This document shows, one piece after another, positions 9,917 through 62,378 of a stretch of DNA of 64,000 nucleotides. The position numbers and the translations under genes were made by a program. The stretch is from a virus, in the UHGV virus genome UHGV-1351569; one strand, written 5' to 3'. The notes under the pieces are model-generated. The model had not been told where the DNA came from. It made no database searches and saw nothing but the letters and a program-made list of their open reading frames with translations. Numbering within the stretch: position 1 is the stretch's first letter; the number at the start of each line of letters is the position of its first letter.

Positions 9917-9948
9917 AATAAATACCCTTATCTATTCAAGGTAAGGGT
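9917..9948 (+). promoter_or_regulatory. Late-promoter-like AATAAATA box plus hairpin (ACCCTTA/TAAGGGT) that sequesters the gene 49 RBS
   Basis: Perfect 7-bp inverted repeat at 9924-9930 and 9942-9948 whose 3' arm holds the SD (TAAGGG) 6 nt before the ATG at 9954. Confidence 0.45.
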
Positions 9949-17735: not shown

Positions 17736-17740
17736 TATAT

Positions 17741-17764
17741 TGCTTTACAAATTTTTGGTAAAAT
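17741..17764 (+). promoter_or_regulatory. Putative middle promoter (MotA box TTGCTTTA, -10 TAAAAT)
   Basis: TGCTTTA 11 bp upstream of a -10-like hexamer before alpha-gt. Confidence 0.4.
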
Positions 17765-17788
17765 AAACCAAAACAATGAGGATATTAA

Positions 17789-18991
17789 ATGAAAGTATGC
17801 ATTTTTATGGCTCGAGGTCTTGAAGGTTGCGGTGTAACTAAATTTTCTCTTGAGCAACGTGATTGGTTTATTAAAAACGGTCATGAAGTAACTTTAGTTT
17901 ATGCTAAAGATAAATCATTTACCCGTAATTGCGCGCATGATTATAAATCATTTTCAATTCCGGTTTTATTGGCAAAAGAATACGATAAAACACTTAAGCT
18001 GGTAAATGATTGTGATATTCTAATTATCAATTCAGTTCCTGCTACTTCAGTCGAAGAAGACACTATTAATAACTATAAAAAAATTATTGATAACATTAAA
18101 CCTTCGGTTCGTGTTGTAGTTTATCAACATGACCATTCTTCTCTTTCTTTGCGTCGAAATTTGGGATTAGAAGAAACTGTTCGCCGAGCTGATGTTATTT
18201 TTAGTCATTCTGATAATGGTGATTTTAATAAAGTTCTGATGAAAGAATGGTATCCAGAAACTGTTTCACTGTTTGATGATATTGAAGAAGCACCGACCGT
18301 ATACAACTTTCAGCCTCCTATGGATATTGCGAAGGTTCGATCAACCTACTGGAAAGATGTTTCTGAAATTAACATGAATATCAACCGTTGGATTGGTCGT
18401 ACGACTACATGGAAAGGTTTTTATCAGATGTTTGATTTTCACGAAAAACATCTTAAACCTGCAGGACTAAGTACTATTATGGAAGGTCTGGAACGTTCTC
18501 CAGCGTTCATTCCTATTAAAGAAAAAGGAATTCCATACGAGTATTATCGTCTTCATCAAGTAGACCAAATTAAAATTGCTCCTAATTTGCCAACGCAAAT
18601 TCTTGACCGTTATGTAAATAGCGAAATGCTTGAACGCATGAGTAAATCCGGATTTGGTTATCAGCTGAGTAAATTAGATAAAAAATATCTACAACGTTCT
18701 TTAGAATATACTCATCTCGAGCTTGGTGCATGTGGAACAATTCCAGTATTTTGGAAATCTACTGGCGAAAATTTAAAATTCCGTGTTGATAATACTCCGT
18801 TAATTTCTCATGATAGCGGTATCGTTTGGTTTGATGAAAATGACATGGAATCAACATTTGAGCGTATTAAAGAACTGTCATCTGACCGAGCTCTTTATGA
18901 CCGTGAACGCGAAAAAGCTTATGAATTTTTGTATCAGCATCAAGATTCAAGCTTCTGCTTTAAAGAACAGTTTGACATTATTACAAAATAA
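17789..18991 (+). CDS. agt: DNA alpha-glucosyltransferase, 400 aa
   Basis: Length and position (between 55 and 47) match T4 alpha-gt; GAGGA RBS. Confidence 0.85.
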   Translation: MKVCIFMARGLEGCGVTKFSLEQRDWFIKNGHEVTLVYAKDKSFTRNCAHDYKSFSIPVLLAKEYDKTLKLVNDCDILIINSVPATSVEEDTINNYKKIIDNIKPSVRVVVYQHDHSSLSLRRNLGLEETVRRADVIFSHSDNGDFNKVLMKEWYPETVSLFDDIEEAPTVYNFQPPMDIAKVRSTYWKDVSEINMNINRWIGRTTTWKGFYQMFDFHEKHLKPAGLSTIMEGLERSPAFIPIKEKGIPYEYYRLHQVDQIKIAPNLPTQILDRYVNSEMLERMSKSGFGYQLSKLDKKYLQRSLEYTHLELGACGTIPVFWKSTGENLKFRVDNTPLISHDSGIVWFDENDMESTFERIKELSSDRALYDREREKAYEFLYQHQDSSFCFKEQFDIITK

Positions 18992-29469: not shown

Positions 29470-29721
29470 ATGGAAACTTTAGTAGCAGGTTCAATTTTTA
29501 TGGTTTTAGTTTCAGGTGTGTTGGCTATTATTATATACATGCTTCCATGGTTTATCGCCTTGATGCGTGGGTCAAAATCGACAGTAGGAATCTTTTTCAC
29601 ATCTTTACTGTTTAACTGGTCAATTATTGGTTGGTTTATTACATTTATTTGGTCAATTGCAGGTGAAACTAAAAAGTCTGCACAGCCAAATCAGGTAATT
29701 ATCATCAGAGAGAAGGAATGA
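29470..29721 (+). CDS. imm: Immunity to superinfection membrane protein Imm, 83 aa
   Basis: Two hydrophobic helices; length and position (between 43 and 42) as T4 Imm. Confidence 0.8.
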   Translation: METLVAGSIFMVLVSGVLAIIIYMLPWFIALMRGSKSTVGIFFTSLLFNWSIIGWFITFIWSIAGETKKSAQPNQVIIIREKE

Positions 29722-33059: not shown

Positions 33060-34487
33060 GTGGTAGAAATTATTCTTTCTCATCTCATATTTGATCAAGC
33101 TTATTTTTCAAAAGTTTGGCCATATATGGATTCAGAATATTTTGAAAGTGGTCCAGCTAAAAATACATTCAAATTAATTAAATCTCATGTCAATGAGTAT
33201 CATAGCGTTCCATCTATTAATGCGTTAAATGTTGCATTAGAAAATAGTTCATTTACTGAAACAGAATATTCTGGTGTAAAAACACTTATTTCAAAACTGG
33301 CTGATTCTCCGGAAGACCACAGCTGGTTAGTAAAAGAAACAGAAAAATATGTTCAGCAAAGGGCGATGTTTAATGCTACGTCTAAAATAATCGAAATTCA
33401 AACTAATGCTGAGCTTCCTCCGGAAAAACGAAATAAGAAAATGCCAGATGTAGGTGCTATTCCTGACATCATGCGCCAAGCATTATCAATTTCATTTGAT
33501 AGCTACGTTGGTCATGATTGGATGGATGACTACGAAGCACGTTGGCTATCTTATATGAATAAAGCTCGTAAGGTTCCATTTAAACTCAAAATTCTAAATA
33601 AAATTACTAAAGGCGGAGCTGAAACTGGAACACTGAACGTTTTAATGGCTGGTGTTAACGTTGGTAAGTCATTAGGATTGTGTTCATTGGCAGCAGATTA
33701 TTTGCAGCTCGGACACAATGTTCTTTACATTTCCATGGAAATGGCAGAAGAAGTCTGTGCTAAGCGTATTGACGCTAATATGCTCGATGTTTCTCTTGAT
33801 GACATTGATGATGGGCATATTTCTTACGCTGAATATAAAGGAAAAATGGAAAAATGGCGTGAGAAATCTACTCTCGGTCGTTTAATCGTTAAACAGTATC
33901 CTACTGGTGGAGCAGACGCTAATACATTTCGTTCTCTTTTGAACGAATTGAAGCTCAAGAAGAATTTTGTTCCAACAATCATTATTGTTGACTATCTGGG
34001 TATTTGTAAATCTTGCCGCATCAGAGTTTATTCAGAAAATAGTTACACAACTGTTAAAGCTATCGCAGAAGAATTACGTGCTCTGGCTGTTGAAACCGAA
34101 ACTGTTCTTTGGACCGCAGCACAGGTTGGTAAACAAGCTTGGGATTCTTCTGATGTTAACATGAGCGATATTGCAGAATCTGCCGGTCTTCCAGCAACAG
34201 CCGATTTTATGCTTGCGGTCATTGAAACCGAGGAGCTAGCAGCTGCTGAACAACAACTAATTAAGCAAATCAAATCACGATATGGCGATAAGAATAAGTG
34301 GAATAAGTTTTTGATGGGTGTTCAAAAAGGAAATCAGAAATGGGTAGAAATTGAACAAGATTCTACTCCAACTGAAGTGAACGAAGTAGCAGGTTCACAA
34401 CAGATTCAGGCTGAGCAGAATCGCTATCAAAGAAATGAATCTACTCGAGCCCAGTTAGATGCTTTGGCGAATGAATTAAAATTTTAG
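33060..34487 (+). CDS. 41: Replicative DNA helicase gp41 (DnaB-like), 475 aa
   Basis: MVEIILSHLIFDQAYFSKVWPYMD... matches recalled T4 gp41; GTG start. Confidence 0.92.
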   Translation: MVEIILSHLIFDQAYFSKVWPYMDSEYFESGPAKNTFKLIKSHVNEYHSVPSINALNVALENSSFTETEYSGVKTLISKLADSPEDHSWLVKETEKYVQQRAMFNATSKIIEIQTNAELPPEKRNKKMPDVGAIPDIMRQALSISFDSYVGHDWMDDYEARWLSYMNKARKVPFKLKILNKITKGGAETGTLNVLMAGVNVGKSLGLCSLAADYLQLGHNVLYISMEMAEEVCAKRIDANMLDVSLDDIDDGHISYAEYKGKMEKWREKSTLGRLIVKQYPTGGADANTFRSLLNELKLKKNFVPTIIIVDYLGICKSCRIRVYSENSYTTVKAIAEELRALAVETETVLWTAAQVGKQAWDSSDVNMSDIAESAGLPATADFMLAVIETEELAAAEQQLIKQIKSRYGDKNKWNKFLMGVQKGNQKWVEIEQDSTPTEVNEVAGSQQIQAEQNRYQRNESTRAQLDALANELKF

Positions 34488-34545: not shown

Positions 34546-34728
34546 ATGGAATTGGTAAAGGTAGTTTTTATGGGGTGGTTTAAGAATGAAAGCATGTTTA
34601 CTAAAGAAACCACAATGATGAAAGATGACGTTCAATGGGCTACTACTCAGTATGCTGAAGTTAATAAAGCGCTAGTTAAAGCTTTCATTGATGACAAAAA
34701 AGTATGCGAAGTGGATTGCCGAGGATAA
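34546..34728 (+). CDS. dmd: Dmd antitoxin (inhibitor of the host RnlA/LsoA RNase toxins), 60 aa
   Basis: MELVKVVFMGWFKNESMFTKE...KKVCEVDCRG matches recalled T4 Dmd. Confidence 0.85.
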   Translation: MELVKVVFMGWFKNESMFTKETTMMKDDVQWATTQYAEVNKALVKAFIDDKKVCEVDCRG

Positions 34729-34729
34729 T

Positions 34730-34987
34730 ATGCATATCGTTTTATTTAAACCTACTCCGTATAACGTCAGGAAAAATACTCAATTCAAAGCACTTATTGC
34801 AGATACGTGGGAATTGGTGTTAGATATTCCAGCAGAAGAAAGTCCTCCATTTGGTCGAGTGGAATTTATTAAGTTTGCTGTGCGCCCTACGAAGCGACAG
34901 ATTCGCCAATGCAAAAGATACTTTCGTAAAATCGTCAAGTTAGAGAAACAGTTTGTAACATGTGATTACGCAGAAGTTTTAAAATAA
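34730..34987 (+). CDS. Hypothetical protein (about 85 aa)
   Basis: ORF track 34688..34987; ATG 34730 behind GAGGA. Confidence 0.5.
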   Translation: MHIVLFKPTPYNVRKNTQFKALIADTWELVLDIPAEESPPFGRVEFIKFAVRPTKRQIRQCKRYFRKIVKLEKQFVTCDYAEVLK

Positions 34988-35045
34988 CTGTTTACTTTTG
35001 TTGAAAATTGAGATACTATAAACATAAACTACTGAGGAGATTATC

Positions 35046-35339
35046 ATGAAAAAATTTATCTTTGCTGCAATTTTTGCTTTATCTTCTTGCGCTGCTCAGC
35101 CTGCTATGGCGGGTTATGACAAAGATTTGTGTGAATGGTCTATGACCGCAGATCAGACTGAAGTTGAAACTCAAATTGAAGCGGATATTATGAATATCGT
35201 TGAGCGTGATCGTCCTGAAATGAAAGCTGAAGTGCAAAAACAGCTTAAGTCTGGTGGTGTAATGCAGTATAATTACGTTCTGTATTGTGATAAAAACTTC
35301 AATAATAAAAATATCATCGCTGAAGTGGTAGGTGAGTAA
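35046..35339 (+). CDS. sp: Spackle periplasmic protein Sp, 97 aa
   Basis: Signal peptide MKKFIFAAIFALSSCAAQPAMA; length and position as T4 sp. Confidence 0.75.
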   Translation: MKKFIFAAIFALSSCAAQPAMAGYDKDLCEWSMTADQTEVETQIEADIMNIVERDRPEMKAEVQKQLKSGGVMQYNYVLYCDKNFNNKNIIAEVVGE

Positions 35340-35351
35340 ATAGAGGTTAGT

Positions 35352-35708
35352 ATGTATAGTTCTGAATTTTCATATTTAAAAATGGAAAAAATTTCATACG
35401 ATTTTATAGATGAAAAGGTTTATTATAGTTTCCATGAACCACGTTTTAACAGTGAAGTCGGTTTTATTGTAGTAAAAGATAATTTCATTTTAAAAATATA
35501 TTCGGCATTAAAGGATTTTCACTACGAAAATATTAACCTAAAATTTGATAAAGAAAACGTTCATAATTGTGCAGTAACAATTACAGGAAATAAAGGTACA
35601 TGTGTTATGCTATCTGATGAAATTAATGATTTGTTAAATGATGTAGAAAAGGTTGCTGTTCCATCAATTGATGACCAAATTTTTAACGCTTTTATGAATA
35701 GAGGTTAA
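35352..35708 (+). CDS. Hypothetical protein, 118 aa
   Basis: ORF track. Confidence 0.5.
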   Translation: MYSSEFSYLKMEKISYDFIDEKVYYSFHEPRFNSEVGFIVVKDNFILKIYSALKDFHYENINLKFDKENVHNCAVTITGNKGTCVMLSDEINDLLNDVEKVAVPSIDDQIFNAFMNRG

Positions 35709-35709
35709 T

Positions 35710-35874
35710 ATGAAAACATATAAAGAATTTATTAAAGAAGATGTGGTAGCTGGAGATTCAGGTGGTAATCCTGAAAATATCTCTACTGGAACAACAACAG
35801 GTGCTGTAGTAAATAAAGGTCCTGAACAGATTCCTAAAAAGAAAAAAGAGGAATCTAAAGAAAAAGAAGAGTAA
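35710..35874 (+). CDS. Hypothetical small protein, 54 aa (Lys/Glu-rich tail)
   Basis: ATG to TAA frame between the previous ORF and gene 61. Confidence 0.4.
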   Translation: MKTYKEFIKEDVVAGDSGGNPENISTGTTTGAVVNKGPEQIPKKKKEESKEKEE

Positions 35875-35876
35875 AA

Positions 35877-36905
35877 ATGTCATCAATACCTTGGATTGAT
35901 AATGAGTTTGCATACCGTGCATTGGCTCATTTACCTAAATTCACACAAGTAAATAATAGTTCAACTTTTAAATTGCGGTTTAGATGCCCTGTTTGTGGAG
36001 ATTCAAAAACCGACCAAAATAAAGCTCGTGGATGGTATTACGGTGATAATAATGAAGGAAATATTCATTGTTATAACTGTAACTATCATGCACCAATCGG
36101 AATATATTTAAAGGAGTTTGAACCTGATTTATATCGTGAGTATATCTTTGAAATAAGAAAAGAAAAAGGTAAAAGTCGTCCAGTAGAAAAACCTAAAGAA
36201 CTTCCTAAGCGACCTGAGAAGAAAATAATTAAATCTCTTCCGTCATGTGTTAGATTAGATAAACTGGCGGAAGACCATCCAATTATAAAATATGTAAAAG
36301 CTCGTTGTATTCCAAAGGATAAATGGAAATATCTTTGGTTTACAACCGAATGGCCTAAATTAGTTAATAGTATAGCACCGGGAACATACAAAAAGGAAAT
36401 ACCTGAGCCTCGTCTTGTTATTCCAATTTATAATGCTAATGGAAAAGCTGAGTCTTTTCAAGGCCGTGCGTTAAAGAAAGATGCTCCTCAAAAATATATC
36501 ACCATCAAAGCTTATCCTGAGGCAACAAAAATCTATGGAGTCGAACGAGTCAAAGATGGTGATGTATATGTTCTAGAAGGACCTATAGATTCACTTTTTA
36601 TTGAAAATGGTATAGCTATTACAGGTGGTCAATTAGACCTAGAAATTGTTCCATTTAAAGATAGACGTGTATGGGTTTTAGATAATGAACCTCGTCATCC
36701 TGACACTATTAAACGAATGACTAAATTAGTTGATGCAGGAGAAAGGGTTATGTTTTGGGATAAATCTCCCTGGAAATCAAAAGATGTTAATGATATGATT
36801 AGAAAGGAAGGTGCAACCCCTGAACAAATTATGGAATATATGAAAAATAATATTGCCCAGGGGTTAATGGCTAAAATGCGGCTATCTAAATATGCCAAGA
36901 TTTAA
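35877..36905 (+). CDS. 61: DNA primase gp61, 342 aa
   Basis: N-terminal zinc ribbon CPVCGDS...CYNC and TOPRIM-like core; length as T4 gp61. Confidence 0.9.
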   Translation: MSSIPWIDNEFAYRALAHLPKFTQVNNSSTFKLRFRCPVCGDSKTDQNKARGWYYGDNNEGNIHCYNCNYHAPIGIYLKEFEPDLYREYIFEIRKEKGKSRPVEKPKELPKRPEKKIIKSLPSCVRLDKLAEDHPIIKYVKARCIPKDKWKYLWFTTEWPKLVNSIAPGTYKKEIPEPRLVIPIYNANGKAESFQGRALKKDAPQKYITIKAYPEATKIYGVERVKDGDVYVLEGPIDSLFIENGIAITGGQLDLEIVPFKDRRVWVLDNEPRHPDTIKRMTKLVDAGERVMFWDKSPWKSKDVNDMIRKEGATPEQIMEYMKNNIAQGLMAKMRLSKYAKI

Positions 36906-37102
36906 ATTAACCCAACCAAAGCAAATGCTAAATCTACGAATGTATCAAGAGTAACTACTGGAATATTAATACCATGCGCAATAGCTACTGGCGATAAAAC
37001 AAAATTCCAAAGTAAAATTCCTATCATAGCAGAAATAGTAAAAGCTATACGTTTTTTATTACCTTTGATGGCATTAACAAGTGCCATTAATTTTTGTACC
37101 AT
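36902..37102 (-). CDS. Antisense-oriented small hydrophobic protein, 66 aa
   Basis: Complement-strand ORF with a near-perfect SD (AAGGAGG) 4 nt upstream of the ATG; predicted membrane helices; sits in the 61-56 intergenic gap. Confidence 0.5.
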   Translation of the reverse strand: MVQKLMALVNAIKGNKKRIAFTISAMIGILLWNFVLSPVAIAHGINIPVVTLDTFVDLAFALVGLI

Positions 37103-37115
37103 ATGTCCTCCTTAT

Positions 37116-37139
37116 TGCTTTATATATTTATTGTATAAT
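37116..37139 (+). promoter_or_regulatory. Putative middle promoter for gene 56 (MotA box TGCTTTA, 11 bp, TATAAT)
   Basis: Consensus MotA box and exact -10. Confidence 0.5.
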
Positions 37140-37173
37140 TAATCTACTAACCCATGAATTGAAAGGAAAAATA

Positions 37174-37692
37174 ATGGCTTACTTTAACGAATGTTCACAA
37201 CTGATTGAAGGCGCTGATAAAGCTCAAAATGAATATTGGGATATTCTCGGCGATGAAAAAGACCCACTACAGGTTATGCTTGATATGCAGAAATCTCTGC
37301 AGGTTCGTTTAGCTAAAGATAAACCTGAATATAACCGTCATCCTGATGATTTGGCTACCGCAGGTGAAGTTGTTGATTGGCTGCGCAATCAGAAAGATTA
37401 TATTGACGATGAATTCCGTGAACTTCTGACTTCTCTTGGTGGTATGAGTAATGGTGAAAAAGACGCATCTGCTGTATGGAAACCTTGGAAGTCGCAGCAT
37501 GGTGAACGTCGTGAAACTCTGATTACTGATTTGTCTCCGCAAGACCAGTTAGAAATTAAATTTGAAATGATTGATATTCTTCATTTCGTTCTGAACATGT
37601 TCCAAGGTCTCGGTCTTACGGCTGAAGAAATCTTTAAACTTTATTATCTAAAAAATGCTGAAAACTTCGCTCGTCAAGACAGAGGTTATTAA
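37174..37692 (+). CDS. 56: dCTPase/dCDPase gp56, 172 aa
   Basis: MAYFNECSQLIEGADKAQNEYWDILGDEKDPLQVMLDMQ... matches recalled T4 gp56; the ORF track extends upstream but the RBS supports ATG 37174. Confidence 0.9.
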   Translation: MAYFNECSQLIEGADKAQNEYWDILGDEKDPLQVMLDMQKSLQVRLAKDKPEYNRHPDDLATAGEVVDWLRNQKDYIDDEFRELLTSLGGMSNGEKDASAVWKPWKSQHGERRETLITDLSPQDQLEIKFEMIDILHFVLNMFQGLGLTAEEIFKLYYLKNAENFARQDRGY

Positions 37693-37736
37693 TGGCTCGT
37701 TTATTTAAACGACGACTTAAAAGCCGCGAGAATTAT

Positions 37737-37744
37737 TATAAATA
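37737..37744 (+). promoter_or_regulatory. Late promoter TATAAATA for soc
   Basis: Exact late-promoter octamer about 30 nt upstream of the soc ATG. Confidence 0.6.
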
Positions 37745-37774
37745 ATCATGTAATTTAAATAAAAGGAGAATTAC

Positions 37775-38020
37775 ATGGCTAGTACTCGCGGTTATGTTAA
37801 TATCAAAACGTTTGAGCAGAAATTAGATGGAAATAAGAAAATTGAAGGAAAGGAAATTTCTGTAGCTTTCCCTCTTTATTCTGACGTTCACAAAATTTCT
37901 GGCGCTCATTACCAGACATTCCCTTCAGAAAAAGCAGCATATACTACTGTATATGAAGAAAATCAACGCGCTGCGTGGATTGCTGCAAACGAAGATTTGT
38001 GGAAAGTAACTGGTGAATAA
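37775..38020 (+). CDS. soc: Small outer capsid protein Soc, 81 aa
   Basis: MASTRGYVNIKTFEQKLDGNKKIEGKEISVAFPLYSDVHKISGAHYQTFPSEKAAYTT... matches recalled T4 Soc. Confidence 0.92.
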   Translation: MASTRGYVNIKTFEQKLDGNKKIEGKEISVAFPLYSDVHKISGAHYQTFPSEKAAYTTVYEENQRAAWIAANEDLWKVTGE

Positions 38021-48220: not shown

Positions 48221-48505
48221 ATGTTTAAAATCGGTAAGAAATATCGCATTCGCGAAGGTGAAGAAAAGAAATATCTATCTTCTGCTATTTATAGGAATGG
48301 TTCTATTAATGCCGTAATATCTACAAGCGAATTTATCGTTGAAGATATGAAAGGTCATAACGTTACAATGATTAGTACAGCAACTAGCAGAAATGCTGGA
48401 AAAATTCTTCACAGTCTTCGGAGTGAAGTTTTAATTTATGATGAAGAATTTGACTTCTTCGAAGAAGTTCCCGAAGATTTTGATTTGAATGTACTATCAC
48501 TATGA
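48221..48505 (+). CDS. Hypothetical protein, 94 aa
   Basis: ORF track. Confidence 0.5.
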   Translation: MFKIGKKYRIREGEEKKYLSSAIYRNGSINAVISTSEFIVEDMKGHNVTMISTATSRNAGKILHSLRSEVLIYDEEFDFFEEVPEDFDLNVLSL

Positions 48506-61690: not shown

Positions 61691-62347
61691 TTATTTAGCC
61701 CTTCCTAATATTCTGGCCGCCTGAGCACATATTGATTCAAGGCGGTCATTACTTATATGATCATTTCTATACCAGTACATGGTTATCGTTCCAGCATAGA
61801 TATTATCCAAATTAAAATATGGACAACTGTACATGTAGTTTATTTCGGGAGTAGGCTTTTTAGTTGGTAAAAAAGCAAATTTTGAGTTGGAATAATAATG
61901 ACGTCCATTTAAATGAACTGTATATTCATCCATAGTTTTATCAACAGGATATCCTCCAAGTGATTTTTCACTTATTGTTGAAGGTAATTTTCCTTCGTAT
62001 GCTATAATATCAACAAAATAGTTTAAGTTTTTAGGGCGGAAAGAATATACCGCACTAAAGTCTGCCTCAGATGATATATGAACTATCTGGAGTTGTTCCA
62101 GGGCGACAGATTCAAAGCGTGCATTTCTTTCCTTTTCAATAATTTCACTGTATGTTTCATACTTTGATTGCTTATAGTACTCAAAGAAACTATCTCCCCT
62201 ATACCAAACAATCGCCATCATAAATAAAAGAATTACGACAGCTACCCGGGAAGCAAGAACTTTCCCGGTAGCGTTATCTTTGAACAAGCGATCTAGAACA
62301 CCAAACAGAATATCAGAGGGCGAAAATGATATTCTAGGTGCTGCCAT
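61691..62347 (-). CDS. t: Holin T, 218 aa
   Basis: MAAPRISFSPSDILFGVLDRLFKDNATGKVLASR... matches recalled T4 holin; strong AAGGAGG RBS; single TM segment. Confidence 0.92.
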   Translation of the reverse strand: MAAPRISFSPSDILFGVLDRLFKDNATGKVLASRVAVVILLFMMAIVWYRGDSFFEYYKQSKYETYSEIIEKERNARFESVALEQLQIVHISSEADFSAVYSFRPKNLNYFVDIIAYEGKLPSTISEKSLGGYPVDKTMDEYTVHLNGRHYYSNSKFAFLPTKKPTPEINYMYSCPYFNLDNIYAGTITMYWYRNDHISNDRLESICAQAARILGRAK

Positions 62348-62378
62348 AGACCCTCCTTTTAAGGATATTTATTCAAAA

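Follow-up and report, generated by a model that had tools for sequence, protein, structure and literature searches.

A conserved small gene convergent with primase gene 61 in T4-like phages, probably transcribed late and predicted to encode a membrane protein

The small gene between genes 61 and 56

The 64,000 nucleotides of viral DNA analysed here, from UHGV virus genome UHGV-1351569 and called the window below, form a T4-type (Tequatrovirus) segment in which genes 41, dmd, 61.4, sp, a 61.2-like open reading frame (ORF), 61.1, 61, 56 and soc follow one another, all on the plus strand. Between genes 61 and 56 a 66-codon ORF, hereafter the small ORF, runs the other way, and comparison of its sequence across related phages indicates that it is a real gene maintained by selection. 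An earlier note on this DNA had described the ORF and its peptide, an AAGGAGG lying 4 nt before the ATG on the same strand, and a position antisense to the uniformly plus-strand genes and divergent from the gene 56 promoter. The ORF listing returns exactly that frame and peptide at 36902-37102, the AAGGAGG is present in the sequence at the distance given, and the arrangement stands, the MotA box of the gene 56 promoter beginning 2 nt beyond the ribosome-binding site of the small ORF. The elements of the locus are as follows.

36902-37102, minus strand: small ORF, 66 amino acids (MVQKLMALVNAIKGNKKRIAFTISAMIGILLWNFVLSPVAIAHGINIPVVTLDTFVDLAFALVGLI), ATG start, PHROG 2024, the same gene as RB32ORF030w and RB69ORF029w
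35877-36905, plus strand: gene 61 (DNA primase), convergent neighbour of the small ORF in every locus examined
37174-37692, plus strand: gene 56 (dCTPase/dUTPase), divergent neighbour of the small ORF in the window phage
36902-36905: overlapping stop codons of gene 61 (plus strand) and the small ORF (minus strand) in a palindromic TTAA
37107-37113, minus strand: Shine-Dalgarno (SD) sequence AAGGAGG, followed by 4 nt (ACAT) and the ATG at 37102-37100

At the base composition of the window an open 66-codon frame is expected by chance in about 1% of cases per frame, and conservation together with purifying selection is a stronger argument for a gene than this length alone. We extracted 12 representatives from 8 genera for comparison. 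Frame, start codon and SD sequence are retained in 12 of 12 loci, with (A)AGGAG(G) at -10 to -13 in each; the frame is open in at least seven genera of Tevenvirinae and in the unplaced genus Marfavirus, and it is intact in every relative examined. The ratio of non-synonymous to synonymous substitution rates (dN/dS, Nei-Gojobori) is 0.07-0.2 within Tequatrovirus and 0.15-0.45 between genera, although synonymous sites are saturated at that distance, and the deficit of non-synonymous changes has a binomial P of 2e-4 to 9e-6.

A search for the peptide in other T-even genomes, suggested by the earlier note, bears out its conservation: tblastn finds the small ORF in 693 phage records. The Tequatrovirus homologues are 90-100% identical, against about 55% for Mosigvirus (RB69) and about 48% for Gaprivervirus, and weaker searches add homologues from Dhaka-, Marfa-, Jiaoda-, Gelderland- and Moonvirus. 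The protein matches PHROG 2024 at E=3.3e-31 (residues 2-66 aligning with positions 1-65 of the 65-position profile), as do all 12 representatives, and the role of that family is unassigned. Identical proteins are already annotated, among them YP_010066617.1 and that of IME340 (100%). As a gene prediction there is nothing new in the small ORF, which hundreds of T4-like genomes already list as a hypothetical protein and which belongs to PHROG 2024. Only five loci, near-identical to one another, were found in IMG/VR, and among 1.84 billion representative proteins a profile search returned only six matches, all obvious family members, with no bridge to any known family.

T4 itself carries the gene. 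The same 66-amino-acid ORF, with four conservative differences, occupies positions 17738-17938 (plus strand) of NC_000866.4, within the 309-bp gap between 61 and dam. The T4 records NC_000866.4, KJ477684 and KJ477686 leave it unannotated, and OZ209057.1 lists a hypothetical protein. T4 omics studies that count reads on NC_000866 have never measured it, a gene under clear purifying selection, and we found nothing on it in the literature, including T4 Ribo-seq and transcription-start-site maps. The earlier note had suggested that the locus may depart from the T4 reference, on the ground that T4 has additional genes in the 61-56 interval. The locus does differ, in that tblastn with T4 Dam finds no dam in the window and T4 has dam between 61 and 56, but the reason given was wrong: T4 also has the small ORF, and genes 61.1-61.5 sit between 41 and 61, in the window at 34546-35874. 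The dam-less junction between 61 and 56 is widespread, 323 of 530 related records with a DNA match (about 60%) covering at least 80% of a query that spans it.

In all loci read the small ORF holds the same place, converging on gene 61 from its 3' side. The 4-nt overlap of stop codons recurs in RB69, VR25 copy 2, S16, UGJNEcP3 and P545; in KpV477 the two genes are instead 18 nt apart, with a GC hairpin between them. On the far side the neighbour varies: in some loci gene 56 is adjacent, in others dam, a homing endonuclease or unrelated ORFs. The window contains no other ORF that matches the family profile. Gaprivervirus VR25 has two tandem paralogues (locus L011, 1495-1692 and 1701-1901), of which the one proximal to gene 61 belongs to the type that is the only one kept by Dhaka- and Marfavirus; that type has decayed to fragments in SP18 (L010, 1693-1804) and TH40 (L012, about 1700-1810).

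Late-promoter box and signals on the opposite strand

Upstream of the small ORF, on its own strand, lies a box resembling the T4 late promoter. It is listed here with the holin gene t, which has the same strand and served as an internal control, and with two of the plus-strand genes.

37125-37132, minus strand: T4 late-promoter-like (gp55-type) box AATAAATA, 22 nt before the ATG, the A(-13) variant of TATAAATA
61691-62347, minus strand: holin gene t, with a AATAAATA box at 62366-62373 and the SD sequence AAAGGAGG
33060-34487, plus strand: gene 41
37775-38020, plus strand: soc

Transcription from this box is predicted to start at about 37119, which would leave about 17 nt of leader. A late-type box ends 14-22 nt before the ATG in all 8 lineages, within flanking bases that are not alignable, and the probability of finding ATAAATA in that upstream zone by chance is 0.3-2% per lineage. 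The boxes are, by lineage:

Window / RB51 type: AATAAATA
T4 type: GATAAATA
RB69: AATAAATA
Gaprivervirus: CATAAATA
Dhakavirus: exact consensus TATAAATA
Marfavirus: exact consensus TATAAATA
KpV477: AATAAATA
S16: ATTAAATA

The ATAAATA core is about five-fold under-represented on both strands of the window (WATAAATA, 7 observed against 24 ± 5 expected; SATAAATA, 1 against 14 ± 4), and of its occurrences, at 9917, 11173, 37125, 37737, 48286, 59601, 62219 and 62366, most lie 18-30 nt before ORF starts. WATAAATA stands before the known late genes 49 (29 nt), soc (30 nt) and holin t (18 nt), and a further copy is found 29 nt before a 256-amino-acid ORF; two others have no ORF at promoter distance. Holin t shows the identical layout of AATAAATA, AAGGAGG and ATG. 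The ATAAATA copies at 48286 (minus strand), 59601 (plus strand) and 62219 (plus strand) have no ORF at promoter distance.

T4 early and middle transcripts share one polarity and late transcripts may have either (PMC2988020). The small ORF is opposite in polarity to 41, 61 and 56 and agrees with holin t, which is compatible with late transcription; on its strand no sigma-70-type promoter was found within 200 nt upstream. Perfect boxes make up 32 of the 50 listed T4 late promoters, and 9 of the 50 have A at -13 (PMC2988020), a position that Nolan et al. describe as poorly conserved in late promoters (PMC1524935). Because the polarity is opposite to that of 41-61-56 and is accompanied by a late-type box and a strong SD sequence, the small ORF is best read as probably a late gene. 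Judged by these sequence features, its reverse orientation has an ordinary explanation, namely T4 late-gene polarity with a conserved late-promoter box. That box is unmarked in the GenBank records examined, in the RB69 list of Nolan et al. and in the literature searched.

Two signals read from the plus strand share this DNA or lie close by.

37116-37139, plus strand: middle (MotA-dependent) promoter of gene 56, with MotA box TGCTTTA at 37116-37122, -10 element TATAAT at 37134-37139 and an 11-nt spacer
37065-37100, plus strand: terminator-like 11-bp hairpin with TTTTT for gene 61 transcripts, in codons 5-13 of the small ORF and 160 nt after the gene 61 stop

The late box lies, on the opposite strand, inside the spacer of the gene 56 middle promoter, so that both promoters share DNA. 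Record OL960581 independently annotates the gene 56 promoter as a T4-type middle promoter, and T4 has an analogous promoter before gene 56, but the shared arrangement is not conserved, because T4 has dam at this place. OL960581 also annotates a rho-independent terminator at the site of the hairpin (-12.4 kcal/mol, z = -3.2). Since the hairpin falls within codons 5-13, the 3' untranslated region (UTR) of gene 61 is antisense to nearly the whole small ORF. The hairpin occurs only in Tequatrovirus, and neither in RB69 nor in Gaprivervirus, so it leaves the conservation of the ORF unexplained, and we dropped it as a cause of that conservation. A separate, long hairpin (36815-36865, arms AACCCCTGAACAA and TTGCCCAGGGGTT) sits in the 3'-terminal part of the gene 61 coding region; read on the strand of the small ORF this is downstream of the ORF, and the hairpin could there stop or stabilise either transcript.

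The predicted protein and its possible roles

The product is predicted to be a small membrane protein that starts with a basic N-terminus, contains one clear transmembrane helix and ends in a hydrophobic tail. Its grand average of hydropathy (GRAVY) is 1.25, and its most hydrophobic 19-residue segment, 23-41, has a mean hydropathy of 2.0. All five Lys and Arg residues are at positions 4-18, clustered at 13-18, and D53 and D57 are the sole acidic residues. AlphaFold2, working from a shallow alignment, places helices at 2-14, 16-42 and 52-63 with a mean predicted local distance difference test (pLDDT) score of 75, and for RB69ORF029w a single transmembrane segment, 21-41, has been predicted (Nolan et al. 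2006, PMC1524935 supplement). W32, N33, P38, G44 and P48 are invariant across subfamilies and A40 is nearly so; N33, A40 and G44 fall on one helix face and form a polar residue plus small-xxx-small motif. Such a pattern in a membrane helix suggests helix-helix association.

The earlier note had called the peptide hydrophobic and two-helix-like. Hydrophobic it is, but only one transmembrane segment is clear (about 19-42). The second hydrophobic segment has 18 residues, including two Asp; in the Jiaoda and Gelderland subtypes it is down to about 14, which makes a second membrane span doubtful. Besides the single clear helix, that note missed the existing annotation in PHROG 2024 and the late-gene orientation with its conserved box.

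The reading we favour, and consider likely, is that the small ORF is a genuine conserved accessory gene of Tevenvirinae, most likely transcribed only late, that encodes a 66-residue inner-membrane protein. Its timing in vivo, and the topology, oligomerisation and cellular target of the protein, are inferred. After replication starts, RNA polymerase with gp55 and gp33, loaded by the gp45 clamp, would initiate at the AATAAATA box, near 37119, and the short-leader mRNA with its perfect AAGGAGG would be translated efficiently. The basic cluster K13-R18 would remain cytoplasmic, residues 19-42 or thereabouts would span the membrane, and the HG-x3-P turn with the hydrophobic, acidic stretch formed by the last 18 residues would rest at or in the periplasmic leaflet. 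The face formed by N33 and A40xxxG44, beside W32 and with a kink at P38, may mediate association between helices, either of the protein with itself or with a membrane partner. The protein might then modulate a late membrane event; our first guess, held with low confidence, is that it works late in the inner membrane, around the holin/spanin machinery, to modulate the timing of lysis or the integrity or state of the envelope.

Several points weigh against this reading. The classical genetics of T4 r (rapid-lysis) mutants is not known to have mapped a locus at the small ORF. The family is without a relative of known function in Pfam, NCBIfam, PADLOC or PDB. At position -13 the box has G in T4 and C in Gaprivervirus, and we found no measured activity for either variant; with the box 16 nt (Gaprivervirus) or 14 nt (S16) from the ATG, the 5' end of the transcript would fall at the SD sequence or just ahead of it. 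The published T4 time-course counted reads on the features of NC_000866.4 only, which omit the small ORF, and none of the 31 RB69 late promoters in the hidden Markov model (HMM) list of Nolan et al. stands before RB69ORF029w.

A more specific proposal is speculative, and we give it a small chance: the protein, conserved across the enterobacterial genera of Tevenvirinae that were compared, could be an unrecognised late membrane component, such as a partner of the holin, of lysis inhibition or of the spanin, or a guard against membrane-acting abortive infection, and the late transcript might also antagonise primase mRNA. If true, this would add an unrecognised component of a late membrane process to the best-studied lytic phage. 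The product is in any case one of few candidate late membrane-located T-even proteins without an assigned role.

Sequence searches of Pfam, NCBIfam, PADLOC and PDB found no relative, at most transmembrane-helix noise, namely matches to a P-type ATPase (E=0.04) and to NqrE (E=0.03). A Foldseek comparison with viral models recovered the family itself, which UniProt labels 'Holin', and two 63-amino-acid proteins of other T4-like phages at E of about 0.1-0.2, which are uninformative on function. The Imm gene of the window phage enters the comparison below.

29470-29721, on the other strand than the small ORF: Imm gene (83 amino acids)

Unlikely, though the best placed of the alternatives, is a role for the protein as a membrane exclusion or counter-defence factor, one that blocks entry of superinfecting DNA or neutralises an abortive-infection effector instead of acting in lysis. 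The family's restriction to one phage subfamily speaks for it, as does the duplication and decay of a paralogue in Gaprivervirus, which is typical of arms-race genes, and the early-strand neighbours dmd, 61.4, sp and 61.2 are exclusion or anti-defence genes themselves. The family shows, however, no similarity to Imm (hhalign probability 0.7%) and resembles no PADLOC model (none of the 12 members gave a match at E ≤ 1), and late timing fits superinfection exclusion poorly. Strict synteny and strong purifying selection across genera also look more like a housekeeping accessory gene than fast-evolving counter-defence.

A holin or pinholin-type lysis protein, forming late membrane lesions, is a still less probable identity. 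The protein is small, hydrophobic and predicted to be expressed late, with one or two helices; its conserved Asn and AxxxG in the transmembrane helix are compatible with oligomerisation, and one UniRef/BFVD entry names a 63-amino-acid variant 'Holin'. Yet it ends ...AFALVGLI, with nothing charged after D57 and so no charged cytoplasmic C-terminal tail, it matches no holin family in Pfam or NCBIfam, and profile comparison does not link it to holin T of the same phage. We discarded the idea of a lambda-like dual start (M1...K4...M6), since M6 is not conserved and the M1/M6 pair provides no dual-start motif in the family. In T4, moreover, loss of t alone abolishes lysis. Given the missing charged tail at the C-terminus, the unconserved dual start and the presence of a separate phage holin, we did not adopt the holin label for the product.

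It is very improbable that RNA is the main product, with a late antisense transcript pairing with the 3' UTR of gene 61 to shut down primase mRNA and the peptide secondary. With stop codons overlapping in TTAA the two transcripts must overlap, gene 61 transcripts extend to the terminator at 37065-37100 and are thus antisense to nearly all of the ORF, and the strong hairpin with arms at 36815-36865 lies downstream in gene 61. Purifying selection nevertheless acts on the protein sequence and not on the RNA, the GC hairpin between the two genes of KpV477 would limit overlap there, and a role for the RNA would not exclude one for the protein.

Hardly credible, finally, is that the small ORF is untranslated and its frame open merely through constraint on the DNA from the gene 61 3' UTR and terminator or the downstream promoter: a terminator-like plus-strand hairpin does lie in codons 5-13, the gene 56 middle promoter does abut the ribosome-binding site, and the T4 reference does not annotate the ORF, but substitutions concentrate at synonymous sites of its frame, amino-acid motifs are invariant where nucleotides are not, RB69 and Gaprivervirus keep the ORF without the hairpin, and ORF, SD sequence and ATG stay constant while the downstream neighbour and its promoter differ between genera.

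Neighbouring genes and comparison with known systems

Two further differences from T4 were noted in the window. Between 56 and soc (37692-37775) segF is absent, unlike in T4, and the 208-amino-acid gp61.2 of T4 is replaced by a 118-amino-acid ORF at 35352-35708 (plus strand). The latter corresponds to RB32ORF033c ('similar to gp61.2'), and RB51 has both genes.

Among known systems, T4 Imm is a small inner-membrane protein of the same phage, as the product of the small ORF is predicted to be, but it is the product of an early gene on the other strand and has two clear transmembrane helices. Class II holins, the pinholin S21 and lambda S are alike to it in size, hydrophobicity and predicted late expression, and share a polar residue with a small-xxx-small pattern in the transmembrane helix; the small ORF product differs from them in having no charged tail, no dual start and no sequence or profile similarity. 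The genes soc, 49 and holin t, T4 late genes that lie within early regions, resemble the small ORF in their TATAAATA-type box 18-30 nt before the start, and t also in its strong SD sequence; their late expression is experimentally established, whereas that of the small ORF is deduced from sequence. From PHROG 2024, RB32ORF030w and RB69ORF029w it does not differ at all: the small ORF belongs with them, in the same position convergent with gene 61.

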